Assembly (NCBI GenBank): GCA_022825745.1
Contig: JAJDWF010000085.1
Coordinates: forward strand, 1,783 to 65,782
DNA from: Dehalococcoidia bacterium
GTDB lineage: Bacteria; Chloroflexota; Dehalococcoidia; Lucifugimonadales; UBA3495
Length of the DNA stretch: 64,000 nt
Direction: 5' to 3'
Shown: piece by piece, positions 12,381-46,769 of the stretch
How the letters are laid out: each line of letters begins with the position of its first letter
How positions within the stretch are numbered: the stretch's first letter is position 1
The notes under the pieces: generated by a model
The model's input: the letters and a program-made list of their open reading frames with translations, nothing else
What the model was told of the DNA's origin: nothing
Databases searched by the model: none
Made by a program: the position numbers and the translations under genes

Positions 12381-12442
12381 CCGATAGACAGTATCAATTA
12401 AGCGCAAAGTTGAGAGAGCGGCTGGACGAATTGGGTTTGGAT

Positions 12443-12924: not shown

Positions 12925-13011
12925 GGACATTAACACCTGCTAGTTACCCTGTCAACCGGTTGCCATCGTTCGGCTCTCCGCTCCTGACGCGGTTGCGGTT
13001 AACCCCGGACG

Positions 13012-14289: not shown

Positions 14290-14310
14290 AACCGTAGCTT
14301 CCTTATCGAA

Positions 14311-14348
14311 AAGGGCGGGGCCTCATAGACACGGGAGGCTCCGCCCTT
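14311..14348 (-). terminator. GC-rich hairpin (partial terminator or attenuator) between the HCH-repeat gene and the CDF gene
   Basis: AAGGGCGGGGCC...GGCTCCGCCCTT stem. On the minus strand it is followed by a short T run (CTTTTCG), then the CDF RBS. Confidence 0.45.
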
Positions 14349-14397
14349 TGCATGGCGCTGGGAGTTCTGAATCTTCGTCGCGTCCTCGACGCTCCAC

Positions 14398-14637
14398 TTA
14401 GGCGGCGTGGGCGACGTGGTGGGGGTCCTCCGCAGCCGCGCAGTGCTCGCCGCCGTGGGTGTGGCAGTGTTCCGCGCCATGCTCGTCCAGTTCTTCCGCC
14501 CCGCCGATCGCCAGGCAGGAAGCGTCGCCGTGGGTGTGGCAATGACCGGCCCCGTGCTCGTGGCAATGCTGCCCGCCGTGGTCGTGGCAGTGCTCGCCAG
14601 TATGCTGGTGGCAGTGGTCGTCTTGATGAGTGGTCAT
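14398..14637 (-). CDS. Small cytoplasmic His/Cys-rich HCHxH-repeat protein (putative metal-binding or storage protein)
   Basis: 79 aa with 21 His and 7 Cys. There are five HCH(Q/D/E/T)H motifs at about 8-aa spacing. GGAGGG RBS 4 nt before the ATG, GC3-rich codons, and a hairpin downstream. Confidence 0.7.
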   Translation of the reverse strand: MTTHQDDHCHQHTGEHCHDHGGQHCHEHGAGHCHTHGDASCLAIGGAEELDEHGAEHCHTHGGEHCAAAEDPHHVAHAA

Positions 14638-28690: not shown

Positions 28691-29467
28691 ATGAACAGTC
28701 GCGAGGAACTCAGGCGCAAGGGCAACGAGATACGGGAACGTCTGCAACACGGCGCCTACCCGGCCCGGGAGCGGCCCCGGGCTACGGCCAGCATTCCCGG
28801 CCTGAGAAACTTCACCGGGGAGTCCATCTTCGGCGCGGTGTGGTCCCGCCCCGGCTTGGACATCCGCTACCGGATGCTGGCCACCCTGTCCGTCCTCACC
28901 ACGCTCCAGCGCCTTTCCCAGTTTCAGACCTACGTCCACAGCGCGCTGAGCCTGGGTTTGAACCCGGAGGAGATCCAGGAAGTGCCAATCCATTGCTCCC
29001 TCTACGCCGGCTTCCCCTCGGCGGTGAACTCCCTGGAGGTGGTGCACGAGGCATTTCGCGAGCGAGGCGTCGAGCCGCCTCAAACCGAAATCCCCGAGCT
29101 GAGCCTTGAGGAAATGGAAGCGCGGGGCCGCGAGCTACGTGATCAACTCTTCGGCCCTGAAGGACAGGGCGGTTACAACAGCGCGCTGATGGACCTTGCG
29201 CCCGACCTGCGAACGCTCACCTACCAGTACGGCTTCGGCGAGATTTTCTTTCGCCCCGGCCTGGACCTGAAATCCAGGGTCGTTTGCGCCACGGCCGCGC
29301 TGGCGGCGACCCGGGCCGACGGCCAACTGCGCAACTTCCTGCGCGCCGGCCCTCGCGTCGGCCTCTCCCAGCAGGAAATGGTGGAGGTGCTGATCCAGAC
29401 CGGAGGCTACGCCGGCTATCCGGCAGCGTTGAACGCCATATCCATCGCCGCCGAGGTCTATAGCTGA
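28691..29467 (+). CDS. Carboxymuconolactone decarboxylase (CMD/AhpD-like) family protein, two-domain
   Basis: Two CMD-like halves. ATG at 28691 with GGAG upstream. Confidence 0.75.
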   Translation: MNSREELRRKGNEIRERLQHGAYPARERPRATASIPGLRNFTGESIFGAVWSRPGLDIRYRMLATLSVLTTLQRLSQFQTYVHSALSLGLNPEEIQEVPIHCSLYAGFPSAVNSLEVVHEAFRERGVEPPQTEIPELSLEEMEARGRELRDQLFGPEGQGGYNSALMDLAPDLRTLTYQYGFGEIFFRPGLDLKSRVVCATAALAATRADGQLRNFLRAGPRVGLSQQEMVEVLIQTGGYAGYPAALNAISIAAEVYS

Positions 29468-29478
29468 GCCAACGGACG

Positions 29479-30591
29479 CTACCGGCTGCCGGCCTCTTGG
29501 AGATCGTTCTCGGTACGGAACGGCCCCCATTCACGTGGGATGTTGAGCAGCCGGTCTTCCAGGTTGTCCACGCTGTTCTGGCCGCAGTACGCCATCGCGC
29601 GGTCGAACTCCTCGCGCAGTATCTCCAGCATGTGGTGTACGCCCTCCGCTCCGTTCACCGCCAGTCCCCAATATAGCGGCCGGCCCACTGCCACCGCGGT
29701 CGCGCCCAGGGCCAACGCCTTGAGCACGTCGCTGCCCCGCCGCACGCCGGAATCCACGTACACTTCCGCCTTACCCCCGGCCGCCGCCACGATTTCCGGC
29801 ACCATTTCGATGCTGGACATGGTGCTGTCAAACCGGCGTCCTCCGTGGGTGGAAACCAGGATGCCGTTGACCCCGTGCTCCACCGCCTTGCGCGCGTCTT
29901 CGGCGACCCTCAGTCCCTTCAACACCAGGGGCAGGTCGGTGAGACTCCGCAGCCACTCCAGCTCCCGCCACGTCAGCGGCGGGCATACCTGTGCTTCCCA
30001 CGGCGGCGGTTCGCCGGACTCGGAAGCGACCTTCAATTGCTCGCGGAAGTTGCCATACTCGCCCGGACGCTCGTAGCGATTGCGTATGTCCCGTTCCTTG
30101 GGGCTGGGAAACGGCGCGTCGATGGTGAGCACGATGGCCCCGTAACCGGCCGCCTCCGCGCGCTTGACCAGGTTCTCGGTAAGGTCGTAACTGCGGTGCG
30201 AAAGCTGGAACCACAGCGGGCCGGTGGCGGCTTCCGCGATCTCCTCCATGCTGCAATTGGAATTGGTGCTGCACATCATCAGCGTGTTGGACATGCCGGC
30301 GCCGCGCACGGTGGCACATTCGGCATCCGGGTGCGCGTTGCTGTGAGCGTCCGTCGGCGAAATCATCACCGGAAAGCTGATGTCCGTCCCCAGCACGGTG
30401 GTCGCGATTTTCCGCTCGGTCGTATCCCGCATGAACCGGGGTCGCAGCGTCAGCGCCTCAAAGGCGGCGCGGTTGCGGGCCGTGGCCATCTCGTCCATCG
30501 CCCCGGCCTCGATGAACTCCCAATAGTTGTGGGGCAGGACTTCCCTGGCCCGCGCCTCATAGTCATAAAGGCTGACTGGATCCATTCGCAC
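29479..30591 (-). CDS. FMN-dependent alpha-hydroxy acid dehydrogenase/oxidase (LldD / glycolate oxidase family)
   Basis: Family motifs (SLYDYE..A, VSTHGGR, GADGV-like region). The start is uncertain: GTG at 30591 or ATG at 30585, since the GAGGAG RBS lies inside the track ORF start. Confidence 0.8.
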   Translation of the reverse strand: MRMDPVSLYDYEARAREVLPHNYWEFIEAGAMDEMATARNRAAFEALTLRPRFMRDTTERKIATTVLGTDISFPVMISPTDAHSNAHPDAECATVRGAGMSNTLMMCSTNSNCSMEEIAEAATGPLWFQLSHRSYDLTENLVKRAEAAGYGAIVLTIDAPFPSPKERDIRNRYERPGEYGNFREQLKVASESGEPPPWEAQVCPPLTWRELEWLRSLTDLPLVLKGLRVAEDARKAVEHGVNGILVSTHGGRRFDSTMSSIEMVPEIVAAAGGKAEVYVDSGVRRGSDVLKALALGATAVAVGRPLYWGLAVNGAEGVHHMLEILREEFDRAMAYCGQNSVDNLEDRLLNIPREWGPFRTENDLQEAGSR

Positions 30592-30745
30592 GGTCGCACT
30601 CCTCACAATAACGGCTTATTGGCAAGGGAATTTTACACCGGGCGGCACGGTATCGCGCCGGTTGACGGGTTTCAATCCATCGGTGTTAGACTGACTTGTA
30701 ACGAAATCCTCGATTCTGCGCTCACCACGTCTCCCGGAGGCAACT

Positions 30746-32125
30746 ATGGCTACCCATTCCGAAACCACGCTCCAGGACTTGCAACGTACCGCCCTGGAAA
30801 ACCTCTGGGTGTACCTGCGGGAACCCAGCGACATGGCCGAGAAGGGCGAGCCCCAGATTTTCGTCGAAGGCAAGGGCTGCCAGGTTACCGACTCGCTCGG
30901 CAACACCTACATCGACGCCATGTCCGGCCTGTGGTTGAAGAATGTCGGTTACGGCCAGAAGGAAATCGCCGACGCCGCCTACGAGCAGATGCTCAAGATC
31001 ACCTACATGCCCCTGGGCACCACCACCGAGCCCACCGTCGTGCTCTCGGAAAAAATCGCATCCATGATGCCGGGCGACCTCTCCCGCTGCTTCTTCACCA
31101 GCGGCGGCTCCGAGTCGGTGGAAACCGCGTTGAAGCTGTCCCGCGCCTACTTCAAGCGCATCGGCGAACCCCAGCGCACCAAGTTCATCAGCCGCCGCGA
31201 CTCCTACCACGGCGCCACCATGGGCGCAATGGCCCTGGGCGGCAACTACCTCTACCCCAGGGAAGACTACGAACCCCTGATGCCCAATACCTTCCACGCG
31301 CCGCAGCCCAACTTCTACCGCTGCGAGTTCAAGAGCGAGTCGCCGGAAGAATGCGGCCAGCGGTGCGTGGACGCCATCGAGAGCATCATCCAGTTCCAGG
31401 GGCCTGACACCGTCGCGGCGGTCATCGCCGAACCCATCTCCAGCCCCATGGGAGCCGTGGTGCCGCCCGACAACTACTGGCCCCTGCTGCGCGAAGTCTG
31501 CAACAAGTACGGCTGCCTGCTCATCGCCGATGAGGTGATTACCGGTTTCGGCCGCACCGGCAAATGGTTCGGCTGCGACCACTGGGACATCGTTCCCGAC
31601 ATGATGACCGTGGCCAAGGGCATCACCAGCGGGTATATCCCCATGGGCGGAACCATCCTCCGCAAGCCCATCGCCGACGCCTTTGTCGGCAGCCCCTCGG
31701 CCGCCTTCCGCCATGTCATCACCTTCGGCGGTCACCCCGTAGCGGCGGCGGCATCCCTCAAGAACCTGGAAATCATGGAACGGGAAGGGATGGTTGAAAA
31801 TTCGGCCCGCATGGGACGCTACCTGCTGGACGGCCTGGAAGAACTCAAGGAAAAACACTCCATCATCGGCAACGTCCGCGGCCTGGGCCTCATGTGCGGC
31901 CTGGAAATGGTGAAGGACCGCGAGACCAGGGAACACTTCCCGGCCGACGCCGGACTCAGCCCCCGCTTGACCCAGGGCTTCGCCGACCAGGGCCTCTTCC
32001 TGCGTGGCGGCGACCTCATGAACATCATGCCCCCGCTGTGCGTCACCCCCGGCGAGGTTGAGCAGATCGTGTCCACCATGGACGACGTGATCGGTCGGGT
32101 GGCGTCGGACCTGGGCGCGGCGTAG
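30746..32125 (+). CDS. Class III (omega) aminotransferase, PLP-dependent
   Basis: 459 aa. Motifs SGGSESVE, IADEV.TGFGRTG, and the PLP-Lys context MTVAKGITSG. Confidence 0.9.
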   Translation: MATHSETTLQDLQRTALENLWVYLREPSDMAEKGEPQIFVEGKGCQVTDSLGNTYIDAMSGLWLKNVGYGQKEIADAAYEQMLKITYMPLGTTTEPTVVLSEKIASMMPGDLSRCFFTSGGSESVETALKLSRAYFKRIGEPQRTKFISRRDSYHGATMGAMALGGNYLYPREDYEPLMPNTFHAPQPNFYRCEFKSESPEECGQRCVDAIESIIQFQGPDTVAAVIAEPISSPMGAVVPPDNYWPLLREVCNKYGCLLIADEVITGFGRTGKWFGCDHWDIVPDMMTVAKGITSGYIPMGGTILRKPIADAFVGSPSAAFRHVITFGGHPVAAAASLKNLEIMEREGMVENSARMGRYLLDGLEELKEKHSIIGNVRGLGLMCGLEMVKDRETREHFPADAGLSPRLTQGFADQGLFLRGGDLMNIMPPLCVTPGEVEQIVSTMDDVIGRVASDLGAA

Positions 32126-32150
32126 CGGCTCAGCCGACAAAACAGCAAAA

Positions 32151-32170
32151 ACGGCCCCAACCGGGGCCGT
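32151..32170. terminator. Bidirectional intrinsic terminator hairpin
   Basis: ACGGCCCC-aacc-GGGGCCGT. On the minus strand it is followed by TTTTGCTGTTTT (ends tRNA-Phe). On the plus strand it follows the aminotransferase stop. Confidence 0.55.
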
Positions 32171-32192
32171 TTCGAGTTGGTAATCAAGAAAA

Positions 32193-32269
32193 TGGTGCCG
32201 AGGGGCGGATTCGAACCACCGACACCGGCATTTTCAGTGCCGTGCTCTACCAGGCTGAGCTACCTCGGC
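32193..32269 (-). tRNA. tRNA-Phe (GAA anticodon), CCA encoded
   Basis: The reverse complement folds as a cloverleaf: GCCGAGG acceptor stem, anticodon loop CUGAAAA, T-arm GGTGG-TTCGAAT-CCGCC, 3' CCA. Confidence 0.9.
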
Positions 32270-32338
32270 TAACAGGGTATTCGATGATAAGCAACGCAGG
32301 AAACATTGTCAATCCAAAACTGCCGTTGCCCCCCGCCC

Positions 32339-35300
32339 CTACGGCGAGCCGCAGGTCGCCACCCCTCCCGGCTTGTCCGCCACGCCATCCAGCCAGGCCG
32401 TGAACCCCTCGTCGTCCGGCGCGCACAGCCCCGTATTGGCGATGGCCAGCCGTTCCAGGTCCGCCAGATTGGTGAACCCCGACGGCAACGCCCCGCTCAA
32501 CCCGGTGTTGTCGTGCAGCGACAGCCGAGTCAACCCGCTCAGGTTGCCCAGGCTCGCCGGCAGCGACCCGCTCAACTGGTTCCGCGCCAACCCGATGATG
32601 CTCAGGTTCGACAGGTTGCCCAGCTCCGTCGGTATCGACCCGGTGAGGCTGTTGCGATTGGCGGCGAAGCGGCGGAGGTTACTCAAATTGCCCAGCTCAG
32701 CAGGGATGGATCCGTTCAAATTGTTGCGGTCCAGCGCCAAATCCTGCAAGCTCGTCATGCTTCCCATGCTGGCCGGTATCGACCCGGTGAGGCCGCCATC
32801 GCCGTCCGCGTCAACCTGGCGATGCAGATAGAGCACTTCCAGTTTCTTCAGGTTGCCCAGGCTGGCCGGCAACGGGCCGGTCAGTTGGTTGTTCTGAAGC
32901 TCCAACCGCTCCAGATTGGTCAGGTTGCCCAACCCATCGGGTAGTGGGCCGGTGAACTCGTTTCCGCCCAGCGTAGCTATCCAAAGCTCGGTCAGGTTGC
33001 CCATGCTGGTCGGAAGCGGACCCTTCAGGTCGTTGTCGTATAGGTACAGTTGGCGCAGTTCGGTGAGGTTTCCGAATGACTCGGGTATGGTTCCGTTCAG
33101 GTTTCTTTGGTGGAGGGTCAGTCGTGTCACCCGTCCCAGGTGGTTGGTGGTAACTCCGGCCCACTCGTGCAGCGGCTTGTCGCTGCCCCAGTTATTGCTG
33201 GAGGTCCAGTTAGGGCCGTTGGTAGCGTTGTAGAACTCCATCAGCACCGGGCGGTCGCGGTCGTCCGGGCAGTCGTAGATTTGGACCTTGGTCAGGCCGT
33301 CCAGCCATTCCTGAATTGCCGCATCGTCGGGCGCACAAACCTGGGTATAAACGGTGTACAAGTGAGTCATGCTGGACATACCCGTCATGCTCAAAGGCAA
33401 AGGACCGCTCAAGCCGCGGTTCTCACGGATCATGAGCACCTGGAGTTCGGACAGGTCGCTGATTTCCGCAGGCAGGGAGCCTTGCAGGTTATTGTTCGGC
33501 AGCTCCAGGGCAATCACCCGCCCGTCGTCATCGGTAGTGACGCCGCCCCACTTGCCCAGCGGCTCCGCGCTCAGCCAGTTGTGGTTGTAAGTCCAGTTGG
33601 CTCCGCCGGTGGCATTGTAGAGGGCAGTCAGCGCGTCCCGATCCGGGTTGTACCCCGCCTCCAGCTTGGCCCGGTTGCTGCGTTGGGTCTCAACGCCGTC
33701 AAGCAGCGTTGCCACCTGGTATGTATAGGTCTGGCCTGTCGTCAAACCCTTGTCGGTATATGAGGTCGAACTGCCGTCGTAGCCGGTCATCTTCTCACCG
33801 TCGCGGTAAAGGGCGTAGGTGATCGGGGCTTCCGGCCGGTGCGGAATGGTCAGCGCGTTCCAGCTCAGTTCTATCTGAGTGCCGGAGGCTGTCGCCGTCA
33901 GGCGAGACTGGTAGCCGAACTCTTGCCAGGTGGCGGTGTTGTCGCCGTTGAAGTCTGCTCGCAGCGCGGGGTACTGCTGGTTAGTGCCAAAATCCCAGGG
34001 GTTGTCGGGGGTGGAGTCGCCGTCCAGGTCCACGTTCCAGGCGGAATAGATGCCGGTGTAGCCCCGGGGCGTCTGAAGCTCGCCGGTGGTCTTGGCGGTA
34101 GCGCCGTCGGTATGCCCGGAGGTGTCGCTGTCATGGTAGCTGTCGGTTATAGTCCCATCCACATTCACGCCCACCAATCCGCCGCCGCCACCTTGACCTC
34201 TCGTCGCGCCAGTGGCGTAACTGGTGCCTATAGTTCCTTCGTTGATGCCCACCAGACCACCGGTCGCGCCCTGGCCTGTAGCGTAGCTGGCGATGATGGT
34301 CCCTTGGTTCCGGCCCACCAATCCGCCGGACAACCCCGAGGCCGTAACCGTTCCGGTGGCGTAGCTGGCGCTTATTGTCGCGCCGTTGTTGCGGCCGACC
34401 AGGCCGCCACTGCTGGACTGGCCGTTGACCGCTCCGGTAGCATAACTTCCGATTATGGAACTGCCGGGTTCAGTGTAGCCGACCAGGCCGCCGGTATCTT
34501 CTTTGCCGCTGACCGCTCCGGTAGCGTAGCTGTCGAAAATCCTGCCGGAATGCTCATTTTCGCCGGTTAAGCCACCGGCATGCCTTTGGCCATTGACCGT
34601 AACTTCGGCATAACTGCCGCTTATTATGTGCCAGTTCTCACCGGTCAAACCACCGGTGTCGTAGGTGCCAGCAACCTTGCCGGTAACGTAACAGTTGCTG
34701 ATTGTGCCGTTGCTCCAACCCGCCAGGCCGCCTACGTATTTCCCGCCTTTTACATCCACTTGAGCCAGCCCCAGGTTCCTGATTTCACCACCAATCCCCA
34801 CCTCAGCAAAGAGCCCCTGATGGGGGAAGCTGAAGAAGAAACCCGGCCACACTTCGATTTCACTGCGGTCGATGAACAAGTTGGCGATGGTGCGACGGTT
34901 GCCTTCAAAGGTGCCGGTGAAAGAGTCGGCTTGAACACCAATCCGGTGCCAGCCCTGGCCCTCGTTCCAGTAGGTAGCGTCGGCAGCGGTAATCTCCCCG
35001 TCGCGGTTCTCGTCAAAGTCCAGGTTGGCCGTCAGCTCGTAGCCGGTGCAGGTAGTTCCGGCGGGGCAAACCGCGCCATCCTCTGCCACCGGAAACGCGA
35101 CGGCGTAGTCCGCCTCATTCCCGGCGGCCGGCGTCCCGTCGCCGTCCAGGTCCCAACGGACGGCGTTGAGCTTGGCCAGGCTGTCAATTTCAATCAGGCC
35201 GTCGCCGTCGGCGTCGTGGTTGTTGGGCGCGCTTTCGGGTGTTGCCGCCGCCCGGTTGCTGCGCCGGGCTTCAACGCTGTTGAGCAGCGTCGCCACGTGA

Positions 35301-37003
35301 TAGGTGTAGGTTTGTCCAACCGTCAGCCCCGTGTCGGTATAGGAGGTCGAACTGCCGTCGTAGCCAGCCACCTTCTCCCCGTTCCGGTAGAGGGCATAGG
35401 CAATGCTCGGCGGACTTGTCCAGTGAGATGCGTCCGCCGGGTTCCAGCGCAGAAACACGCGCGGGCCGGCGACCCGCGCCGTCACGATGGGCCGCTCCCG
35501 CACCTGGTAGCCCAACTCCTGCCAGGTGGCGGTGCCGTCGCCGTTGAAGTCGGCTTTCAGTACAGGGTACTGGTCTGCCGTCCCGAAGTGCCACGGATCG
35601 TCGCCGCCGGTGCTATCGTCGCCGTCCCCATCGGCGTTGTCCAGGTCCAGGTTCCATCCGGCATATATGCCGGTGTAGCCGGTGGGAGCGGTCAATTCGG
35701 CAGTGCTTTTGCCTCCCGCGCGGACACGGCCGAAGACGTCGCTGTCATAGTAATATCCGCTGATCGTTCTCCCACTGTTATTGCCCACAACGCCGCCGAC
35801 GTGACTGTTGCCGCTGACCGTGCCCACAGCGTAGCTGCCCGCGATCGTTCCTTCGATCGTATCTCCCAACGCAGTATAAAACTCGTTATCACCCACGAGA
35901 CCGCCGACATCGCTATTGCCGCTGACCGTGCTCATGGCGTAGCTGGACCTTATCGTTCCGTCGTTGGCGCCCACCAGGCCGCCCACATCTTCATCGCCGC
36001 TCACCGAGCCGGTAGCGTAGCTGCGGATTATCACGCCCTTGCGTTCACCGCCGAATTCTGACGCGTTGAAGCCTACCAGTCCGCCGACGTCATATTGGCC
36101 AACAACTTTGCCGGTGGAGTAGCTGTCGGTTATGGTGCCGGAAATTTCGTTCTCGCCCACCAGGCCGCCGACGTGAAGTCCTCCGGTGACATCAACCGCC
36201 GCCCAGCAACGGGTTGCCGAACCGAAAGTCTCACCAATCAGTCCGCCGGTATCATAAGTGCCAACAACTTTGCCGGTGGCCCAGGCGGCGGTAATGCTGG
36301 TTTCCACTTGGCTCCAACCGGCCAGTCCACCGGCGTACCTGTCTGCCGTAACGTCCACGCCCGGCAGCCCCAGGTTCCTCACCTCCGCGCCGTTGCCCAA
36401 CACGCTGAACAGCCCCTGGGTATTTTTGGTTGAGCGGTCAGCAAACAGGTTGGCGATGGTGTGGCCGTTGCCATCGAAGGTAACGTGAAATAGACGGGCG
36501 TCGCGTGGGGAAGTACTCCCATCGTTGAGGGCGGTGACGCCTTGCCTGCCGATAGGAAGCCAGCCGGCGCCGTTGTTCCAGTACGCGCTGTCGGCAGCGG
36601 TAATCTCCCCGTCGCGGTTCTCGTCAAAGTCCAGGTTGGCCGTCAGTTCGTAGCCGGCGCATTCGGTTTCGGCGGGGCATACCGAGCCATCCTCGGCTAC
36701 CGGGAACGCGGCGGAGTAGTCGGCGTCGTTGCTGGCGTTGTCTGCCGCGCCGTTGTCGTCCAGGTCCCAGCGGACGGCGTTGAGCTGGGCCAGGCTGTCG
36801 ATTTCGATCAGGCCGTCGCCATCAGTATCATAGTGGGCGGGCGGAGTTTGCGCTTCGGCGGGTGGCGCGGCGACGAACAGGCTCAGCAACACCAGCACCA
36901 GCACGGCGGCCAGGGGCAGCAGGGGCCATCTTATGATGCCGCTCCCTCCGAGTTGCAGGGTGCGAAAACGCGCTATGCGGCGTCCTTTGTTGCTATTCAA
37001 CAT
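32339..37003 (-). CDS. Giant secreted/surface protein: two GLUG-repeat modules with FN3-like domains plus two plant-type LRR modules
   Basis: ATG at 37003 (GAGGGAGGGG RBS), signal/anchor helix, DxDGDGxIE Ca-binding-like motifs, 7+8 GLUG repeats (V/TGGLVG), two FN3-like domains and about 14 24-residue LRRs. Confidence 0.85.
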   Translation of the reverse strand: MLNSNKGRRIARFRTLQLGGSGIIRWPLLPLAAVLVLVLLSLFVAAPPAEAQTPPAHYDTDGDGLIEIDSLAQLNAVRWDLDDNGAADNASNDADYSAAFPVAEDGSVCPAETECAGYELTANLDFDENRDGEITAADSAYWNNGAGWLPIGRQGVTALNDGSTSPRDARLFHVTFDGNGHTIANLFADRSTKNTQGLFSVLGNGAEVRNLGLPGVDVTADRYAGGLAGWSQVETSITAAWATGKVVGTYDTGGLIGETFGSATRCWAAVDVTGGLHVGGLVGENEISGTITDSYSTGKVVGQYDVGGLVGFNASEFGGERKGVIIRSYATGSVSGDEDVGGLVGANDGTIRSSYAMSTVSGNSDVGGLVGDNEFYTALGDTIEGTIAGSYAVGTVSGNSHVGGVVGNNSGRTISGYYYDSDVFGRVRAGGKSTAELTAPTGYTGIYAGWNLDLDNADGDGDDSTGGDDPWHFGTADQYPVLKADFNGDGTATWQELGYQVRERPIVTARVAGPRVFLRWNPADASHWTSPPSIAYALYRNGEKVAGYDGSSTSYTDTGLTVGQTYTYHVATLLNSVEARRSNRAAATPESAPNNHDADGDGLIEIDSLAKLNAVRWDLDGDGTPAAGNEADYAVAFPVAEDGAVCPAGTTCTGYELTANLDFDENRDGEITAADATYWNEGQGWHRIGVQADSFTGTFEGNRRTIANLFIDRSEIEVWPGFFFSFPHQGLFAEVGIGGEIRNLGLAQVDVKGGKYVGGLAGWSNGTISNCYVTGKVAGTYDTGGLTGENWHIISGSYAEVTVNGQRHAGGLTGENEHSGRIFDSYATGAVSGKEDTGGLVGYTEPGSSIIGSYATGAVNGQSSSGGLVGRNNGATISASYATGTVTASGLSGGLVGRNQGTIIASYATGQGATGGLVGINEGTIGTSYATGATRGQGGGGGLVGVNVDGTITDSYHDSDTSGHTDGATAKTTGELQTPRGYTGIYSAWNVDLDGDSTPDNPWDFGTNQQYPALRADFNGDNTATWQEFGYQSRLTATASGTQIELSWNALTIPHRPEAPITYALYRDGEKMTGYDGSSTSYTDKGLTTGQTYTYQVATLLDGVETQRSNRAKLEAGYNPDRDALTALYNATGGANWTYNHNWLSAEPLGKWGGVTTDDDGRVIALELPNNNLQGSLPAEISDLSELQVLMIRENRGLSGPLPLSMTGMSSMTHLYTVYTQVCAPDDAAIQEWLDGLTKVQIYDCPDDRDRPVLMEFYNATNGPNWTSSNNWGSDKPLHEWAGVTTNHLGRVTRLTLHQRNLNGTIPESFGNLTELRQLYLYDNDLKGPLPTSMGNLTELWIATLGGNEFTGPLPDGLGNLTNLERLELQNNQLTGPLPASLGNLKKLEVLYLHRQVDADGDGGLTGSIPASMGSMTSLQDLALDRNNLNGSIPAELGNLSNLRRFAANRNSLTGSIPTELGNLSNLSIIGLARNQLSGSLPASLGNLSGLTRLSLHDNTGLSGALPSGFTNLADLERLAIANTGLCAPDDEGFTAWLDGVADKPGGVATCGSP

Positions 37004-37245
37004 TGTCTGCCCCTCCCTCAGACACAATCCAGTCCACCCAACGGCGGATGTGCACGCCGAAAATGTCAAGTACGGTGACCGCCGCCAATTTTACCACCCA
37101 AAACCCCCAAATCCAGCATATATCGACATTAATTCCCAAAAACCCCGGTGCCCTTCCGGTGTCCGAACAGGGCGGGAGCCAAGCAAAGAAAAAGGGCGGT
37201 CAGGAAAACCCTGAACGCCCCGGCGCTACCTGGTCGGCGAAGTCG

Positions 37246-38019
37246 TCACGGATTCTGCTGGCGCAGCCGCGCCTCCAACTCGCGGACACGGGCCTCGGCG
37301 GCAGCGCGGGCCTCCCGCTCCCGGTCGGCGCGGGCCTCGGCGGCAGCGCGGACCTCCCGTTCCCGGTCGGCGCGGGCGCGTTGGTCTTCGTAGGTGAGGA
37401 TTGGCCGGTCGGTCGCCGGATCGTAAAACACCAACTCACCTTCCTCCCAGCGCAGGTACAGGTCCAGCATCGCGCTGTACCCCTGCAAACTGCCGTCGGG
37501 CAACTCCGCTATCTCAATGGCAACGTACTCCCCGTTCTCCAGCCGGTCCCCGGCCAGCCGCGCGCCGTGATGCTCACCGGTCTCGTCAAACCGCCAGTAC
37601 TCCGGTATCCCGATGGCGGCGTAGTCCCCACGCTTCGGGCCTGTGTCCTCCCGGCCGCTGCTCCGCGACGCGATTTCCAGCACGAAGTCCGGCGGCTTAC
37701 CCTGCTCGGCGATGATGTACCCGTTGCTGGCTGCATACGCCGCCGGGTCCACGTCGAAGGCCACCAGCAGGTCCGGGTACCGCCCGCCGGCCAGGTAACG
37801 GGTCGGCTGGGCCACCGTGTAACGGTCTCCGGCCACCAGGATGCGGTCCCGCTCGTCAGGCCGCCGGTCCATCAGGTGCTGCTTCAGGTAATGAGCGTTG
37901 CCGTTGATGGTCAGACGGTCGAAGCTGGTCATCTTGTCGTCCGGGTTTTCGGGCGGGTCCGGCAGTCGGAAACGGCCCGGAACCGGAGGCGTCTTGAGGT
38001 GGGTGTCAGGCGTGGTCAT
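37246..38019 (-). CDS. Uma2-family (DUF820) endonuclease with C-terminal coiled-coil repeat
   Basis: Uma2 core (PDLLVAFD...PDFVLEI.S.S....D...K...YA..GI.EYW..D), then the duplicated ARADRERE(V/A)RAAAE. Confidence 0.85.
   Translation of the reverse strand: MTTPDTHLKTPPVPGRFRLPDPPENPDDKMTSFDRLTINGNAHYLKQHLMDRRPDERDRILVAGDRYTVAQPTRYLAGGRYPDLLVAFDVDPAAYAASNGYIIAEQGKPPDFVLEIASRSSGREDTGPKRGDYAAIGIPEYWRFDETGEHHGARLAGDRLENGEYVAIEIAELPDGSLQGYSAMLDLYLRWEEGELVFYDPATDRPILTYEDQRARADREREVRAAAEARADREREARAAAEARVRELEARLRQQNP
37291..37374. repeat. 2 x 42-bp tandem repeat inside the Uma2 gene 3' end
   Basis: GGCCTCGGCGGCAGCGCGG(G/A)CCTCCCG(C/T)TCCCGGTCGGCGCG occurs twice, with 2 mismatches. Confidence 0.7.
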
Positions 38020-38396
38020 GTCGCATCTCGTCCGGCGGTCGGCGCCAGGCGGCGCGCTGCCGCGCTGTGGCTCCCGGAAAGGCGCTGTTCTACGAACTGC
38101 ATTCTACACCACGTTGCGATATTTTCCCAAAATCCCGGTGACGCTTCCCCCATTGCCCCACCCGTCACCCGTCCGTACCATTTAACTCAACCATCCAATC
38201 GCCCAACTCCCGCTCATGGTGAGCCTGTCGAACCACCGCCCCCAAACCCTCTCATCTGCCCGCCAAAACCGCCATTATCACCACCAAAACCCACCCATTC
38301 CGCCCCCATCATCCGCTCAAACCCCTACTCAAACGAACGGAAATGAGAGGAAATGAGCGGCATTTCGCCAAAATCGCCACCATCACACCTGCCACT

Positions 38397-38460
38397 GTCA
38401 TTCCTGCACCCACACCGACATTCCCGCACCCACATCGTCATTCCCGCGAAAGCGGGAATC
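38397..38460. repeat. REP-like element: three tandem ~20-nt units ending in hairpin ATTCCCGC-GAAA-GCGGGAAT
   Basis: GTCATTCCTGCACCCACACC / GACATTCCCGCACCCACATC / GTCATTCCCGCGAAAGCGGGAATC. A related inverted copy lies at 57965-57990. Confidence 0.6.
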
Positions 38461-38480
38461 CAGATCTCAGAGGTAATCCC

Positions 38481-38804
38481 ATGACCCTTTCCCAAATCCG
38501 TCGCCGCGTCAACGCCCTCAAGCGCAAGTTCGTCCTCGAACTCGCCATCCTCAGGCTGCGCCGCATCGCCGAAGCCGTCGCCGACGACTGGGACCTCGAC
38601 GAGCCACCCGAGCCCCACGACGTCATCCAGCGCGTCGCCAAAGCCGGCTTCCGCCTGTCCACCTTCATGCGACTGCGCTGGTACCTCAACGACGCCATAC
38701 GCCAGGGCGACGTCCCCGAGCCGCGCCGGATCGTCACCAGCCTGCTGCCCTGGGCCAGCAAGGACTGCTACCGCGGATTCTTCCGCAGCGAACTCCCCGC
38801 CTGA
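38481..38804 (+). CDS. Hypothetical protein (107 aa)
   Basis: ATG at 38481, just after the REP hairpin. The upstream 46 codons of the track ORF are a translation of the repeat. No family recognised. Confidence 0.5.
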   Translation: MTLSQIRRRVNALKRKFVLELAILRLRRIAEAVADDWDLDEPPEPHDVIQRVAKAGFRLSTFMRLRWYLNDAIRQGDVPEPRRIVTSLLPWASKDCYRGFFRSELPA

Positions 38805-38827
38805 TGTCCCAACCCGTAACGGTCGCG

Positions 38828-40195
38828 TCAGTTGCGTTGCAGGTCGGATAGGTCGTCCGTCAGGGTCCGCATTGTCTCCGGGTCGGGATCGCTGGGCTGT
38901 GGCCCGTAGTGGTAGCGCTCAAACTCCCCCACGATGCGCTCCACGGGCGGGTCCGGCAGGGCCTGGTTCGCTTCTTGCCGGTGTTCCTGCGGAGTCTGCC
39001 AGGTGTGGCGCGTGAACCCCACCGCCCGGGCGATGTCCAGCATCCGGTAGTACACCTCGCGCGGGTTGGTGGGCGGCGGCCGGCGCCGGCTCAGGTTGGA
39101 GGCCCAGTTGAACCAGCCGGCCAGGGCGTCGGCCACGTCCTGACCCGCGGCCTGCAACGTGAACGTCGATTCCCGGGTCTCCGCGTCGGCGTAGTCGTTG
39201 CCCATGAGACGCCGACGACGGAACATCCGGAACAGCACCCAGCCGGCCAGCGATACCGCCGCCAGGAAGGCGAGCCACTTGATGACCGTGAGTATCACGT
39301 TGGGAGGGCCCTCGCCCTCAACCTCGCGCAGGCTCTCGTGGAACTCCTCGATTTGCAGCCGGGCCAGCTCCAGGCCGCTGAGATCGCCGCCGCCGAAGAA
39401 ACTGGAAATCCAGTTGCCGATGGCCACCAGCCCGGCGGCAAGCAGCCCCAGCAGCAGGAGGATCGGTCGCAGGGTCCACAACCCGATGAAGCCGATGCCC
39501 CGAACGATAGCCCGGGCAACGTCATCCAGGCCGCCCACGCCAATGGCTCCCAGGATCAGTGCCAACAGCAGCACCGCGCCCACGCTGGCGACAATGGCCA
39601 TCAGCCACCTGCGGCTGATCTGGCCAACGCCGCTGTCGATGGCGAAACGACTCAGCGCCAGGCCGCCCAGTCCGATGGCGAAGTAGATGACCAGGATCGG
39701 CAGCCGGATAATGTGCGCCGGCATCAACGGGTCTGCCGCCGCCGCGACCAGCACGATGATGACGCCGCGTACGAAGGCGTTTCTGATCACGTCGAGCGTA
39801 ACGTCGTCGCGGGCAATCGTGGTGCCCCGCCACCAGAGCAGCAGCAGCACACCGGAGGCCAGGCTGAGCGCCGCGATGGCGTTCAAGTCTCCGGAGAACA
39901 CGAGCCCGATGGGAAACCACCCCGCCCCCATGCTGACCCCGGCAAGTACCAGCACCGACAACGCGCTGACAAACAGCCCGATGACGCCGCGCAGGTTCAG
40001 CGAGAAGCGGATGTTCTGCACGTACCAGGACAGGACGAATGACCAGGTGATGGCCACCATCGCAATGCCCAACGGCACGCCTGCCTCGGGGAGGCGGATA
40101 ACGTTCGAGAGCAGCTTGCCGATCAGATAGATGGCAAAGCCTTCCAGGAACAGCGTAACGCCGGTGACCAGCGCGGAGCGGGCGAAGGTGGTCAT
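38828..40195 (-). CDS. Polytopic membrane protein with C-terminal DUF4129 domain (TgpA-like, lacking a transglutaminase core)
   Basis: About 9 TM helices, then a DUF4129-like tail (REVYYRMLDIARAVGF.R...QTP.E). The ATG at 40195 overlaps the DUF58 stop (ATGA). Confidence 0.7.
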   Translation of the reverse strand: MTTFARSALVTGVTLFLEGFAIYLIGKLLSNVIRLPEAGVPLGIAMVAITWSFVLSWYVQNIRFSLNLRGVIGLFVSALSVLVLAGVSMGAGWFPIGLVFSGDLNAIAALSLASGVLLLLWWRGTTIARDDVTLDVIRNAFVRGVIIVLVAAAADPLMPAHIIRLPILVIYFAIGLGGLALSRFAIDSGVGQISRRWLMAIVASVGAVLLLALILGAIGVGGLDDVARAIVRGIGFIGLWTLRPILLLLGLLAAGLVAIGNWISSFFGGGDLSGLELARLQIEEFHESLREVEGEGPPNVILTVIKWLAFLAAVSLAGWVLFRMFRRRRLMGNDYADAETRESTFTLQAAGQDVADALAGWFNWASNLSRRRPPPTNPREVYYRMLDIARAVGFTRHTWQTPQEHRQEANQALPDPPVERIVGEFERYHYGPQPSDPDPETMRTLTDDLSDLQRN

Positions 40196-41535
40196 TCCTT
40201 GCTCTCCACGACGGTGGCGGCGACGGATGCGTCGTCCAGCCAGTCGTCCCGCCACATTTCTTCCAGGCCGGCCAGCGACGGCCCGGCCATGTACAGCGGG
40301 ACTTCCGGCGGCAGCAGCTGCGCAACCGGGCCGGGGTCGCCGTCGCCGGCGTAGAAGATCATGACGTGGTGCCCGCGACGACGGATTTCTTCAGCCTCGT
40401 TCACCACGACCCGGGACACCAGAGCGGTAACCAGCACCACGGTGGCCCCGGATACCAGCGAGTGCGACTCTTCGCGCAGCACCGAGGACAGCTCGGTGAC
40501 CCAGAAGGGCCCCGCCATGGCCAGGGACTCCAAAACCGATTCCAGTTGCAAGCTGCCGGAACCGGGCGGCACCGACATCCACTTGCTGGAATAAGAGGCG
40601 ATGGCGTTGCTGACCAGGCTGAAGGTGTATTCCTCACGACAGGCGTGCTCGGCGACGGACGCAGCGACGGTTACGGCGCGCTCGAACAGGCGGCGGTTGC
40701 TCCCCTGCCAGGCGGCGTCGCCGGTCCGCGCGTTGAGCGCGATGAGCATGTAACGGGTGGCTGCCGGTTCAAAAACGCGGGACTCCAGCTTGCCGTGCCG
40801 GGCCGTAGCCTTCCAGTCGATACGCTTCAAAGGGTCGGACGGCAGGTAGTCGCGGAGGCCGACGAAACGGCTGGGGTCGTCCTGGATGAACCTGTGTCCC
40901 CGGCTGGCGCCCAAGGGCCGCTCCCAAAGGTTCATCATTTGGCGCAGATCCACTATGCGGGGATAGACCAGCAGGTACTCCACGTTGGTGATATGCTGCT
41001 CGGCCGAGGTCAGGCCGAACATATCGCCGCTGCGCAAACGCGCCGGGCCGATGCGATGGTAGCCGCGAACGCGACACCGTACCCGGTAGCGCCAGGTGAC
41101 CCGCTGATAGGGGAGCAGGGAAGTCGTGATGCGGTGGTCCAGTTCGGCTTCCGCGCCGACGCCGCGCCGGAACGTGCCCCCGGTCTGGAGACCCAGGGGA
41201 AAGGTGTCGGAAATGTCCAGCCAGATCATCGGCAGGATCTTGTCGTTGTCCACCGTGATGTAGTAGTCGAGCACGTCTCCAATGAAAGCGCGGCGACGCT
41301 CCAGCCGCCGGGAATAGGTGAGCCGCCGAAATGCGTAGCGCGGCCAGTGCTTCCCAGTAATCCAGATGAGCAGGACCAGCACGCCGACCACAATCAGCAA
41401 CGCCTGGCTGGCGAGGAGGCCGGCGATGATGGCGATGGCGGCGGCAATAACCCAAAGGTCGCTTATCATGGCCGCAGGATAACCGATTTGCGAGTCGCCG
41501 GCACGAATCTCTGTGATATGCTGATTGCGATTCAC
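40192..41535 (-). CDS. DUF58 domain-containing protein
   Basis: DUF58 signature (DPLKRIDWKATARHGKLESRVFE) after an N-terminal TM hairpin. The start is uncertain: GTG at 41535 or ATG at 41469. Confidence 0.85.
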   Translation of the reverse strand: MNRNQHITEIRAGDSQIGYPAAMISDLWVIAAAIAIIAGLLASQALLIVVGVLVLLIWITGKHWPRYAFRRLTYSRRLERRRAFIGDVLDYYITVDNDKILPMIWLDISDTFPLGLQTGGTFRRGVGAEAELDHRITTSLLPYQRVTWRYRVRCRVRGYHRIGPARLRSGDMFGLTSAEQHITNVEYLLVYPRIVDLRQMMNLWERPLGASRGHRFIQDDPSRFVGLRDYLPSDPLKRIDWKATARHGKLESRVFEPAATRYMLIALNARTGDAAWQGSNRRLFERAVTVAASVAEHACREEYTFSLVSNAIASYSSKWMSVPPGSGSLQLESVLESLAMAGPFWVTELSSVLREESHSLVSGATVVLVTALVSRVVVNEAEEIRRRGHHVMIFYAGDGDPGPVAQLLPPEVPLYMAGPSLAGLEEMWRDDWLDDASVAATVVESKE

Positions 41536-46728: not shown

Positions 46729-46769
46729 TGTGAGCCTCCGGCAGTGGGGGCATTATACAGGTGATTGAC

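Follow-up and report, generated by a model that had tools for sequence, protein, structure and literature searches.

A putative exported GLUG–LRR protein with tandem beta-helix modules and plant-type LRR cassettes is encoded at a hypervariable locus in a Dehalococcoidia bacterium

The GLUG–LRR gene is intact

The window analysed here is a 64-kb stretch of Dehalococcoidia DNA. On its minus strand lies an ORF of 1,554 aa (37003..32342), which we term the GLUG–LRR gene. It begins with an ATG at 37003, and a Shine-Dalgarno-like run, GAGGGAGGGG, lies upstream. The longest reading of the ORF starts at the first TTG, spans 32339..37069 (-) and has 1,576 codons; this is the 'track-ORF' numbering of the initial annotation. 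In the encoded protein, a signal peptide is followed by two tandem modules and these by two capped LRR cassettes. Each module starts with a Ca-loop head, continues with a GLUG beta-helix and a tail, and closes with an FN3-like domain. The features of the locus are as follows.

32148..32312 (-): tRNA-Phe(GAA) transcription unit (ARAGORN; promoter-like site, terminator hairpin)
32342..33265 (-): LRR cassette B, aa 1247-1554 (24-residue spacing, PDB matches)
33266..33664 (-): LRR cassette A, aa 1114-1246 (cap motifs, GxIP register)
33665..33907 (-): FN3-like domain b, aa 1033-1113 (Pfam RGI_lyase at 1039-1113; fn3 at 1035-1111, E 1.3e-5)
33908..34129 (-): module 2 tail, aa 959-1032 (alignment to module 1)
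34130..34888 (-): predicted module 2 GLUG beta-helix, aa 706-958 (Pfam Glug; 8 GGLxG turns)
34889..35221 (-): module 2 head, aa 595-705 (73% identity to head 1; Cys pair C646/C652)
35222..35503 (-): FN3-like domain a, aa 501-594 (PDB 3mpc match and alignment to the module 2 copy)
35504..35743 (-): module 1 tail, aa 421-500 (conserved columns; EF-loop regex)
35744..36433 (-): predicted module 1 GLUG beta-helix, aa 191-420 (Pfam Glug; 7 GGLxG turns)
36434..36838 (-): module 1 head, aa 56-190 (head profile, conserved columns)
36848..37003 (-): start codon and signal peptide, aa 1-52 (GAGGGAGGGG, hydropathy)
37246..38019 (-): Uma2-family nuclease-like gene, upstream of the GLUG–LRR gene and within the variable segment (Pfam Uma2, E 6.6e-15)
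32650..38400 (no strand), about 5.8 kb: replaced (hypervariable) segment (identity of the window to contig L080)

Being a highly repetitive gene on a metagenome-derived contig, it might be suspected to be an assembly artefact or a pseudogene, in which collapsed or chimeric repeats had been read as one ORF. The reading frame is uninterrupted over 4.66 kb with a coding-type GC3 of 0.76, and the protein is present on two separate records that are one substitution apart. A 1.02-Mb contig carries an intact orthologue with 82% identity and an equal arrangement of two modules and two cassettes, and complete MAG chromosomes carry intact relatives. Repeat collapse is ruled out because the internal DNA copies are only 73-84% identical. 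The module copies lie about 1.6 kb apart, and a DNA repeat search of 32100-38500 found no long pair above 84% identity; the only closer pair, a tandem repeat of 42 nt (95%), belongs to the Uma2 gene. An artefact is accordingly close to negligible as an explanation. The gene is unfragmented, and alleles at the same position occur in relatives. No further copies were found in the window. The gene had been called by far the largest in the window, which overstates the difference, since the Lhr helicase at 24183-28592 has 1,469 aa.

The protein is probably exported by the Sec pathway

Hydropathy analysis revealed one hydrophobic segment, at aa ~20-52. The signal peptide has a basic n-region and an A-E-A/Q cleavage-type site, the position of which was placed by eye, not by a predictor. 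The mature protein is acidic (pI 4.4). It has four Cys pairs, two in the heads (C109/C115 and C646/C652) and two in the LRR C-caps (C1223/C1245 and C1527/C1551). The head pairs occupy invariant columns in 22 module instances, and the pair of the LRR-B C-cap is invariant in 12 aligned cassettes. The hydrophobic N-terminus, the cleavage-type site, the Cys pairs and the acidic mature chain are consistent with an extracytoplasmic location. An RR pair is found about 18 residues ahead of the hydrophobic core, and Tat export was judged unlikely by inspection; Sec is favoured because of the disulfide- and Ca-dependent design of the protein. The hydropathy and motif scan of the whole protein found neither a C-terminal nor any other TM segment, and no LPXTG or HExxH motif. 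Likewise, no anchoring device was found, and Pfam and NCBIfam gave no SLH or other known envelope-anchoring domain.

Two tandem modules with a predicted GLUG beta-helix

The two modules share 61% identity over about 500 aa (heads 73%, GLUG parts 53%, tails plus FN3 64%), which bears out the duplication with a common layout seen in the initial annotation. The head of module 1 forms a small alpha/beta cap and contains the EF-hand/dockerin-like loops DTDGDGLIEIDS and DENRDGEITAAD as well as the Cys pair C109/C115. In the head alignment of 22 module instances, C54/C60, Y63-E64-L65 and W93 are invariant. The Pfam scan of the head gave no family above cut-off and only a sub-threshold EF-hand match. 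In the scan of the whole protein, EF-hand_1 at residues 57-71 reached 24.7 bits, slightly below the cut-off of 25.4. The module 1 tail follows the pattern ...TAELTAPTGYTGIY..W..DPWHFGT..QYPVLKADFNGDGTATWQELGYQ and ends in a canonical 12-residue EF-hand-type loop, detected by the EF-loop regex at aa 485. The tail is conserved in 22/22 module instances with W395, P425, E441, G443 and Q445 invariant, and it matches no Pfam family. Two Ca-binding-like motifs per module had been noted before; the loops are there, but each module has three, the extra one, DFNGDGTATWQE, lying in the tail. Ca binding by the modules is suggested by these acidic loop motifs, with two Pfam EF-hand matches below the cut-off.

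The GLUG regions are matched by Pfam Glug (PF07581) in nine stretches over the whole protein (E 1.1e-32, 110.6 bits against a cut-off of 20.5). Counting GGLxG turns gave 15 in total, 7 in module 1 and 8 in module 2, in agreement with the earlier counts, and the GLUG DNA repeats of module 2 are spaced 66-84 nt. The AF2 model of the module is an all-beta solenoid (pLDDT 85.7, pTM 0.89). Its best PDB folds in Foldseek were 3n6z, 7uvk and 6xja, the latter two being the IgA1 protease NTD beta-helix, with a probability of 1.00 and E-values of 3.5e-7 to 1e-4. A module profile matched IgA1 protease in the PDB with an E-value of 2e-16, whereas module 1 as a single sequence gave only a weak FN3 match. 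Based on the model, the GLUG region is predicted to be a right-handed beta-helix like the solved GLUG domains. FN3-like domain a was assigned by a weak match of aa 547-585 to PDB 3mpc ('Fn3-like protein') together with the alignment to domain b. Pfam matched the RGI_lyase beta-sheet/fn3-like domain in two stretches (E 4e-14), the better one being the module 2 copy.

A right-handed beta-helix is also the fold of polysaccharide-active enzymes, and the protein could be secreted as such an enzyme. Pectate-lyase- or alginate-epimerase-like helices would then degrade host or dissolved glycans, and the LRR and FN3 parts would serve as targeting modules. Foldseek did return AlgE epimerases, polygalacturonase, pectate lyases and tailspikes, and the RGI_lyase beta-sheet domain matches the FN3-like part. 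However, the matches to the AlgE, lyase and tailspike folds are weak and not significant (E 0.03-0.6, TM <=0.29); the significant ones are the non-catalytic IgA1 protease NTD and 3n6z. The RGI_lyase match concerns a non-catalytic beta-sandwich, and no CAZy-type family was found with Pfam or NCBIfam. In the alignment of 22 module instances, the invariant helix columns are structural Gly, Leu, Val and Ser positions of the GLUG turn, and a conserved acidic or basic catalytic cluster is absent from the helix. We therefore regard an enzymatic role as quite improbable.

The LRR cassettes are of the plant-specific class

Cassette A starts with the N-cap DRDALTALYNATGGANW...WGGVTT, has 2-3 repeats and ends in the C-cap VCAPDDAAIQEWLDG...C with the Cys pair C1223/C1245. 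In cassette B, about 10 plant-type repeats of 24 residues (LxxLxLxxNxLxGxIP) lie between an N-cap and a C-cap, the latter with the pair C1527/C1551. The GxIP anchors are 24 residues apart with the exception of one irregular 31-residue repeat and two of 25 residues, and the LRR DNA has a 72-nt periodicity. Pfam matched LRR_14 (E 4e-29), LRR_8 (3e-14), LRR_1 (1.1e-12) and LRR_4 (8.5e-12); with the Glug and RGI_lyase/fn3-like matches, this confirms the GLUG, FN3-like and LRR assignments made from the letters.

The stacked repeats show the plant-specific consensus LxxLxLxxNxLxGxIPxxLxx, and structure prediction of the LRR part yielded a confident AF2 model (pLDDT 92.6). Among PDB sequences the best match was MIK2 (2.9e-153), with further matches to FLS2, GSO1, PEPR1 and BRI1. 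Plant LRR receptor ectodomains account for all of the best 40 PDB sequence matches and the best 50 fold matches; the first PDB match from a bacterium is Leptospira LIC11098 (3.7e-37). The LRRs belong to the plant-specific LRR class, as the initial annotation had proposed for both LRR modules. LRRNT_2 and Pkinase were not detected by Pfam, and the N-cap is without Cys.

The gene is replaced between near-identical strains

Comparison of the window with contig L080 revealed 95-98% identity at 29340-32644 and 38470-40251 and only 52-79% between these stretches. The replaced segment spans the GLUG–LRR gene minus its 3' ~300 nt, the upstream nuclease gene and intergenic DNA. Its 3' boundary thus lies inside the GLUG–LRR gene, not at the tRNA, and the last ~100 codons of cassette B fall in the conserved flank. 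The same chromosomal position is filled by five alleles of 1,001-1,554 aa, those of the window and L080 and three more in relatives. The signal-peptide region is 73-84% identical in the Uma2-flanked alleles P0003, P0021 and P0020, and 43% identical in P0034, the allele with near-identical flanks. Identity is mosaic in two of the compared proteins. In P0003 the LRRs are 95-96% identical and the module 51-70%; in P0002 module 1 is 93-95% identical, LRR-B 74% and the signal peptide 49%. By these alignments, the GLUG–LRR locus is hypervariable, with the gene replaced by a divergent allele between near-identical strains. A diversity-generating retroelement target was considered and rejected, since long repeat pairs of near identity were absent and the scanned ORFs (all but some small ones) included no RT.

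The neighbouring nuclease-like gene changes as well: an NYN-domain gene takes the Uma2 position in L080. Uma2 is kept in L076 and L078, and the upstream DNA of L077 matches the Uma2 region of the window at 82%. Toxin/defence genes (PemK, PIN_4, Mrr_cat) adjoin the locus in relatives.

The tRNA-Phe(GAA) lies beside the gene on the same strand, as reported before (32269-32193), but this adjacency carries no mobile-element meaning here. The tRNA has its own promoter-like site (32312-32284, an 11/12 match) and terminator hairpin (32173-32148). The absence of a direct repeat and an integrase was confirmed, since the 3' 25-mer of the tRNA is single copy in the window with 3 mismatches allowed and no integrase was found among the scanned neighbour genes. 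A tRNA-linked integrated island was therefore rejected for the window, where also the boundary of the variable segment is inside the GLUG–LRR gene. The tRNA-Phe and the downstream genes flank a different allele in L080 at 95-98% identity, and the tRNA is next to the alleles in L076 and L077 as well. In these last two, synteny with the window breaks about 58 nt beyond the tRNA, past the terminator, and the tRNA may mark the edge of a separate variable region there.

In marine bacteria, replacement-type flexible islands encode surface structures. The locus could likewise encode a phage-exposed structure, with phages or other predators that take the protein as a receptor driving its diversity and replacement. 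The replacement of a surface-protein gene within a species between conserved flanks, the swap of the neighbouring nuclease-like gene (Uma2 against NYN) and the toxin/defence genes beside the locus in relatives would all fit. However, phage genes or evidence for a phage receptor were not found, and the apparent concentration of the family in host-associated lineages (see below) is not predicted by phage pressure alone. Phage pressure would also account for the selection rather than for the function of the protein, and is compatible with a recognition protein. As a rival explanation we consider it rather unlikely, albeit the strongest of the alternatives.

A large combinatorial family, seemingly of sponge symbionts

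Homologues of the GLUG–LRR protein number more than 5,171 proteins at E<=1e-10. Full-length modules were counted 88 times, in 45 of the best 121 proteins. A head-only profile found 8,137 representative proteins, in which the head is repeated up to 14 times, and the LRR cassettes of the family have 4 to 16 repeat units each. Relatives often also carry cadherin, fn3 or He_PIG domains. As judged from these comparisons, head, GLUG helix and tail together form a module that is reused, and the gene belongs to a big undescribed combinatorial family in which modules and cassettes are shuffled. In the literature, neither the GLUG-containing module nor the capped LRR cassette nor the combined architecture was found described. 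GLUG as a motif, domain or repeat was found named in only 5 papers, with nothing relevant on GLUG and sponges, and no directly useful paper on plant-specific LRRs in bacteria was found.

A GTDB scan with exact peptide patterns of the GLUG–LRR protein, and therefore a biased sample and no census, gave 74 loci. They are found in MAGs of Dehalococcoidia, Caldilineaceae, Acidimicrobiia (Ca. Poriferisocius, Aldehydirespiratoraceae), Acidobacteriota, Latescibacterota and Gammaproteobacteria. In this sample the family is seemingly concentrated in sponge-symbiont lineages. A lineage within UBA11606/Aldehydirespiratoraceae lives in symbiosis with sponges, and sponge symbionts show an enrichment of LRR, fn3 and cadherin domains (PMC11706023). 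The window, at 62-66% GC, contains genes for FMNOs and for a CoA transferase of the CaiB type, both typical of sponge SAR202 (PMC6306507). The genome had been taken for that of a free-living bacterium. This is probably wrong, because the closest relatives and the sampled family come mostly from MAGs of lineages that were described from marine sponges or take their name from them. Judged from the lineages of the relatives and the gene content of the window, the host genome is probably that of a sponge symbiont of the SAR202 type.

Many S-layer and aggregation proteins are, like the GLUG–LRR protein, large, acidic, rich in Ca motifs, secreted and repetitive. Some MAGs carry many copies; a single chromosome has 8 loci in Aldehydirespiratoraceae and another has 7 in Latescibacterota. 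An S-layer-like or bacterium–bacterium aggregation protein of the monoderm Chloroflexota cell, with no host-directed role, was therefore considered. It is at odds with the lack of an SLH or other known envelope-anchoring domain, and LRR solenoids typically bind specific ligands. Moreover, an extreme change of architecture between near-identical strains would be unusual for a lattice protein. Such a role appears unlikely.

Proposed function

We favour, with moderate confidence, a recognition protein that is exported by Sec, cleaved and then either extracellular or at the cell surface, in a Dehalococcoidia bacterium of the SAR202 type that is probably a sponge symbiont. The protein would be stabilised by Ca and disulfides, with its alleles exchanged under diversifying selection. 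This function is read from the folds alone. The protein would fold outside the cell, stabilised by its disulfides and by seawater-level Ca2+. The beta-helix/FN3 modules may form an extended stalk, possibly with secondary binding surfaces, and the concave face of the LRR cassettes would bind a ligand, a protein or a peptide, on another cell of either the host or a microbe. Alleles may be exchanged between near-identical strains by homologous recombination through the conserved gene ends. Such exchange would point to diversifying or frequency-dependent selection on what the protein recognises, or on its recogniser. The initial annotation had suggested a cell–cell or cell-surface interaction factor. 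This remains reasonable, since the studied GLUG helix binds a protein ligand and LRR solenoids are ligand-binding, but it did not include the modular family and the allelic replacement.

A broader and more tentative possibility is that the locus represents an undescribed recognition system. The family of modules and LRR cassettes might have spread by gene transfer across at least five bacterial phyla, inside sponge microbiomes if the sponge link holds. Its loci would be swapped so that each strain shows a different binding specificity towards host cells, immune-type receptors of the host or neighbouring microbes. In that case the LRR cassette with its own caps might be a ligand-recognition unit of bacteria that either parallels plant peptide-receptor ectodomains or has a common origin with them.

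Repeat domains of sponge symbionts are known mostly as Pfam counts, with few defined families and almost no loci for recognition tests. The GLUG–LRR protein offers a defined building plan, in which a signal peptide precedes modules of head, GLUG helix, tail and FN3 and the plant-type LRR cassettes with their caps come last, with confident models for both units. Its head domain of ~115-135 residues, outside Pfam models and present in thousands of giant proteins, is a possible family marker. Near-identical genomes that differ in this gene are a natural experiment. Should the alleles follow host species, individual sponges or phage populations, they would give a handle on symbiont recognition or persistence; if they do not, the locus is still a clear case of replacement-type variation of a surface protein in Chloroflexota.

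Comparison with known systems

The M26 IgA1 metalloproteases of S. pneumoniae and G. haemolysans (6xja, 6xjb, 7uvk) and B. ovatus BACOVA_03286 (3n6z) have the GLUG right-handed beta-helix in common with the GLUG–LRR protein. The beta-helix of the IgA1 protease NTD, the only studied GLUG helix, is an independently folding unit and binds IgA1 Fab (PMC7695701). In the GLUG–LRR protein the helix is duplicated, framed by a Ca-loop head and a tail that IgA1P is without, and fused to FN3 and LRR parts. The M26 catalytic middle and C-terminal domains, HExxH, G5 and LPXTG are missing. Pfam gave no match to Peptidase_M26_C or G5, and Peptidase_M26_N reached 18.2 bits against a cut-off of 27.7. An IgA protease identity was therefore rejected, and the comparison with IgA-protease-type surface proteins made in the initial annotation does not hold beyond the helix.

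Methanimicrococcus blatticola, a gut archaeon, gained GLUG-motif membrane/adhesin-like proteins that were proposed to function in adhesion (PMC9723798). They are likewise surface proteins expanded in a host-associated microbe, and their function is equally a proposal. In contrast to the GLUG–LRR protein, they have Flg_new partners, another host and no LRR.

The LRR region is partially matched by the Xanthomonas effectors XopAE (NCBIfam, 2.2e-28), XopAC (2.1e-19) and XopL (2.1e-11). These matches cover ~120-170 residues of LRR only and score far below the cut-offs (99.5 against 600, 69.6 against 450 and 43.2 against 500 bits). The effector C-terminal domains are absent, and a Sec signal peptide stands in place of a T3 signal.

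Among the eukaryotic-like proteins of sponge symbionts (LRR, fn3, cadherin, ANK, TPR), the GLUG–LRR protein agrees with the Pfam definition of the LRR class, PF00560, PF12799 or PF13855 at E<1e-5 (PMC11706023). Relatives of the protein occur in the same symbiont lineages. Studies of these proteins count Pfam domains, and the experimental support there concerns ankyrin proteins, not LRR.

With the ectodomains of plant LRR-RKs (MIK2, FLS2, GSO1, PEPR1, ERL1/2, BRI1), the GLUG–LRR protein has the 24-residue LxxLxLxxNxLxGxIP repeat and the N-cap type (...W.GV..) in common. Their best sequence matches range from 2.9e-153 to 1e-52. Unlike the plant receptors, the GLUG–LRR protein has no TM helix and no kinase, and its N-cap is without the plant Cys pair. 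It has instead a distinctive C-cap, L-C-A-P-x-D-x-x-F-x-x-W-L...C, and the cassettes are short (2-16 repeats), with several per protein.

The GLUG-LRR gene and its domain architecture

The longest ORF of the region lies on the minus strand at 32339..37069. The start of the GLUG-LRR gene is an in-frame ATG at 37003 with GAGGGAGGGG just upstream; the 1,554-aa product ends at 32342, followed by a stop codon at 32339-32341. An ORF of this kind could be an assembly artefact. This is contradicted by two separate records that hold the same protein, one substitution apart (D83G), and by an orthologue, intact on a 1.02-Mb contig, with 82% identity and the same layout. The initial annotation had raised the question of such orthologues.

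Each domain assigned in the initial annotation has support in Pfam. Glug was matched with 110.6 bits in nine stretches, the RGI_lyase/fn3-like beta-sandwich in two stretches, and LRR_14, LRR_8, LRR_1 and LRR_4 were all found; the EF-hand loop scored slightly under the cut-off. In NCBIfam, the Xanthomonas proteins XopAE, XopAC and XopL gave partial matches to the LRR part only, far under their cut-offs. Counting of GGLxG turns yielded seven in module 1 and eight in module 2, in agreement with the repeat numbers proposed initially. The gene is not by far the largest in the window, as had been stated, since a Lhr-type large helicase (24183-28592, minus strand; DEAD, Helicase_C, DEAD_assoc and Lhr winged-helix domains) has 1,469 aa and thus nearly the same length. 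Module 1 (aa 53-594) and module 2 (aa 595-1113) share 61% identity, and their DNA copies, about 1.6 kb apart, are 73-84% identical.

The head-GLUG-tail module

A profile HMM of modules 1 and 2 detected 88 full-length instances, spread over 45 of the 121 best homologues, and many proteins carry 3-8 copies. An alignment of 22 diverse instances showed a head, the GLUG turns and a tail. The head consensus is xDYDxDxDGLIEV..LAQLNA.RWDLDGDG...Y.AAFP....C....C.GYEL.ADLDF... and that of the tail is ...GKTTAELQ.PT.Y.GIY..W..D...DPWDFGT..QYPALKAD.DGDG.ATWQEFG.Q; for neither does Pfam give a family above cut-off. A head-only profile was searched against 1.84 billion representative proteins and matched 8,137 of them at E<=1e-3 (1,723 at E<=1e-30), with up to 14 heads per protein and protein lengths reaching 7,362 aa.

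From the alignment of the 22 instances, AlphaFold2 modelled the module with a pLDDT of 85.7 and a pTM of 0.89 as a small alpha/beta head that caps an all-beta solenoid. The best PDB fold was 3n6z, a domain of a Bacteroides ovatus 'putative IgA1 protease' (E 3.5e-7), and the N-terminal domain helices of IgA1 proteases (7uvk, 7uvl, 6xja, 6xjb) were the other best matches. The profile of the 22 instances also reached IgA1 protease in the PDB at E 2e-16, while the single sequence of module 1 gave nothing there but a weak FN3 match. In the Streptococcus pneumoniae protease this helix folds independently as a unit, touches the IgA1 Fab and acts as a gate to the active site (PMC7695701). No significant fold matches to the module model came from pectate-lyase, epimerase and tailspike helices in the PDB, and the proposal that the beta-helix of the GLUG-LRR protein is itself enzymatic is weakly supported.

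Plant-type LRR cassettes

The protein contains two LRR cassettes (together aa 1114-1554), each with an N-cap (DRxxLxALYxATxGxNW...W.GVTT) and a C-cap (LCAPxDxxFxxWL...C). The stacked repeats follow LxxLxLxxNxLxGxIP with a 24-residue spacing of the GxIP anchors, and the coding DNA has a 72-nt period. Among relatives, cassettes comprise about 4 to 16 repeat units. When the LRR sequence was compared with the PDB, the best 40 matches were all plant LRR receptor ectodomains, among them MIK2 (2.9e-153), FLS2, GSO1, PEPR1 and BRI1. An AF2 model (pLDDT 92.6) gave the same picture, as 50 of its top 50 PDB fold matches were plant LRR receptor ectodomains. The label 'plant-type LRR' is therefore well supported by repeat length, sequence and fold. 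Some bacterial proteins are known to have plant-type LRRs.

Putative export signal, cysteines and calcium-type loops

The protein has a single hydrophobic segment, at its N-terminus (aa ~20-52), with A-E-A/Q after it and Q53 as the putative first residue of the mature form; the sequence contains no second TM segment, LPXTG or HExxH. Export would probably proceed via Sec. The mature protein is acidic (pI 4.4), and contains ten cysteines, of which eight fall by position into four pairs, namely C109/C115 and C646/C652 in the heads of modules 1 and 2, and C1223/C1245 and C1527/C1551 in the LRR C-caps. The columns of both head pairs are invariant over the 22 module instances, those of the LRR-B C-cap pair over 12 aligned cassettes. 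EF-hand/dockerin-type loops are present in both modules; examples from module 1 are DTDGDGLIEIDS, DENRDGEITAAD and, in the tail, DFNGDGTATWQE. To judge from sequence, the cysteine pairs, acidity and loops fit folding outside the cell that would depend on disulfides and Ca2+. An S-layer-like structural protein is a further, weakly supported reading of the gene product.

Allelic replacement at the locus

The surroundings of the gene in the window are as follows.

32193-32269, minus strand, tRNA-Phe(GAA), 70 nt downstream of the GLUG-LRR gene
37246-38019, minus strand, nuclease-like Uma2-family gene
38828-41535, minus strand, DUF58/DUF4129 pair
41623-42810, plus strand, 395-aa all-TPR protein adjoining this pair

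DUF58/DUF4129 pairs frequently accompany MoxR-type ATPases. The Uma2-family ORF contains a tandem 42-nt repeat (37289-37372; two copies, 95% identical).

Other alleles occupy this chromosomal position in four relatives.

Alleles at the position of the GLUG-LRR gene
L080, protein P0034, 1,330 aa, two modules, extra domains, one LRR cassette
L076, protein P0003, 1,001 aa, one module
L077, protein P0021, 1,072 aa
L078, protein P0020, 1,416 aa

The neighbours of the L080 allele are those of the window (DUF58, DUF4129, the gene itself, tRNA-Phe, aminotransferase III, FMN dehydrogenase, CMD), with the DUF58-DUF4129 flank 96-98% conserved. DNA identity is 95-98% over window positions 29340-32644 and 38470-40251 and falls to 52-79% across about 32650-38400, where the L080 allele replaces the GLUG-LRR gene. 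The upstream nuclease-like gene is swapped as well, with a NYN-domain gene (L080 2074-2703) in the place of Uma2. The 3' junction lies inside the GLUG-LRR gene, whose final ~100 codons are part of the conserved flank. In the three other relatives the flanks are 82-91% identical. Uma2 was called upstream in L076 and L078, and the upstream DNA of L077 is 82% identical to the Uma2 region of the window. Downstream of the allele, tRNA-Phe is present in two of them (L076, L077); the contig of the third, L078, stops just past the gene.

Protein identity between relatives is a mosaic. P0003 shares 95-96% with the window protein in both LRR cassettes and 51-70% in the module. P0002 is a homologue from an unrelated context, in which DNA identity (87%) covers a patch the size of the gene; it shares 93-95% in module 1, 74% in LRR-B and, in the signal peptide, 49%. 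The locus is hypervariable, and this is our main new result. Neither a DGR-like repeat pair at the locus nor, among the scanned ORFs, an RT came to light. The simplest mechanism of replacement would be homologous recombination via the conserved ends and the repeated modules.

The initial annotation had pointed out that the gene abuts a tRNA gene, with no integrase or direct repeat seen. The tRNA-Phe has its own terminator and a promoter-like site near consensus (11/12), and no further copy of its 3' end occurs within the window. Thus it is a mere neighbour here and does not belong to a mobile element. Gene order shared with the window breaks off in L076 and L077 ~58 nt past the tRNA, immediately after the terminator (window equivalent just below 32135). 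Beyond it, L076 has small ORFs, a PemK toxin, PIN_4, AAA/DUF4143 and DUF8371 (4560-14412) and L077 has Mrr_cat (4110-9212), while the window and L080 have an aminotransferase. This switch to toxin- and defence-type genes suggests a second, separate variable spot; the L076 and L077 genomes may have a variable or defence island next to tRNA-Phe.

Genomic context and distribution of the family

The window is ordinary chromosome with a GC content of 60-69% and core genes such as GyrB, Lhr, DinG-like exonuclease-helicase and MgsA; a gamma-glutamyltranspeptidase is also present. Further genes are listed here.

9922-12354, minus strand, 810-aa protein with its best ZnuA solute-binding match confined to the C-terminal ~180 residues (627-807)
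15945-18830, minus strand, 961-aa fusion of an RNase_T-type exonuclease and a DinG-like helicase (DEAD, Helicase_C_2)
20859-21986 (minus), 46761-47981 (plus) and 56933-57958 (plus), two luciferase-like flavin monooxygenases and a family-III (CaiB-type) CoA transferase
44448-46728, minus strand, N6/N4 DNA methylase, immediately followed in the same orientation by a radical-SAM protein that carries an HMPTM-type zinc ribbon

For the 810-aa protein Pfam listed a second ZnuA stretch at a position not given, and nothing else at E<=1e-5 for most of the N-terminal ~600 residues. The scanned ORFs near the methylase include no restriction enzyme gene. Gene content and GC agree with the description of sponge SAR202 (PMC6306507). 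The luciferase-like monooxygenase and family-III CoA transferase families are reportedly expanded in SAR202, sponge-associated members included.

Scanning of GTDB species representatives revealed 74 loci of the GLUG-LRR family; as exact peptides of the window protein served as query, this is a biased sample and no census. Nearly all of the loci lie in MAGs of Dehalococcoidia and other Chloroflexota, Caldilineaceae, Acidimicrobiia (Ca. Poriferisocius, Aldehydirespiratoraceae), Acidobacteriota (Versatilivoraceae, Bryobacterales), Latescibacterota and Gammaproteobacteria (Ca. Azophilus, Pseudomonadales). A sponge-metagenome origin is presumably also indicated by bin prefixes (SB0662, COS3) and study tags (PANK22, NGUY21). 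Several chromosomes carry 5-8 family loci each. Single MAG chromosomes of Aldehydirespiratoraceae and Latescibacterota have 7-8 separate ones (L011, L012, L014, L015, L029, L049, L050 and L054 on OZ244902.1; L018, L037, L057, L064, L067, L069 and L071 on OZ242010.1), a sign that paralogues of the family have expanded strongly in distant phyla. A sponge-symbiotic lineage has been described within UBA11606/Aldehydirespiratoraceae, and such symbionts show an enrichment of LRR, fn3 and cadherin domains (PMC11706023).

Proposed function and comparison with known systems

The architecture would be compatible with a stalk that carries a binding tip, in which the concave face of the LRRs may bind the ligand. 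Candidate partners are a sponge cell or immune-type receptor and other bacteria, with phage as a possible selective agent, and the locus may be under diversifying selection. In the searchable literature we found no account of the composite GLUG-LRR family, its head and tail domains, the capped cassettes or replacement at the level of the locus. LRR-type eukaryotic-like proteins of sponge symbionts are already known as a class, and ankyrin proteins of symbionts have been examined in cellular uptake assays. The GLUG beta-helix has already been described in IgA1 proteases and is common to these and the GLUG-LRR modules. In contrast to plant LRR receptor kinases, the GLUG-LRR protein lacks the TM segment, the kinase and the N-cap cysteines, which rules out that it is a receptor kinase itself.
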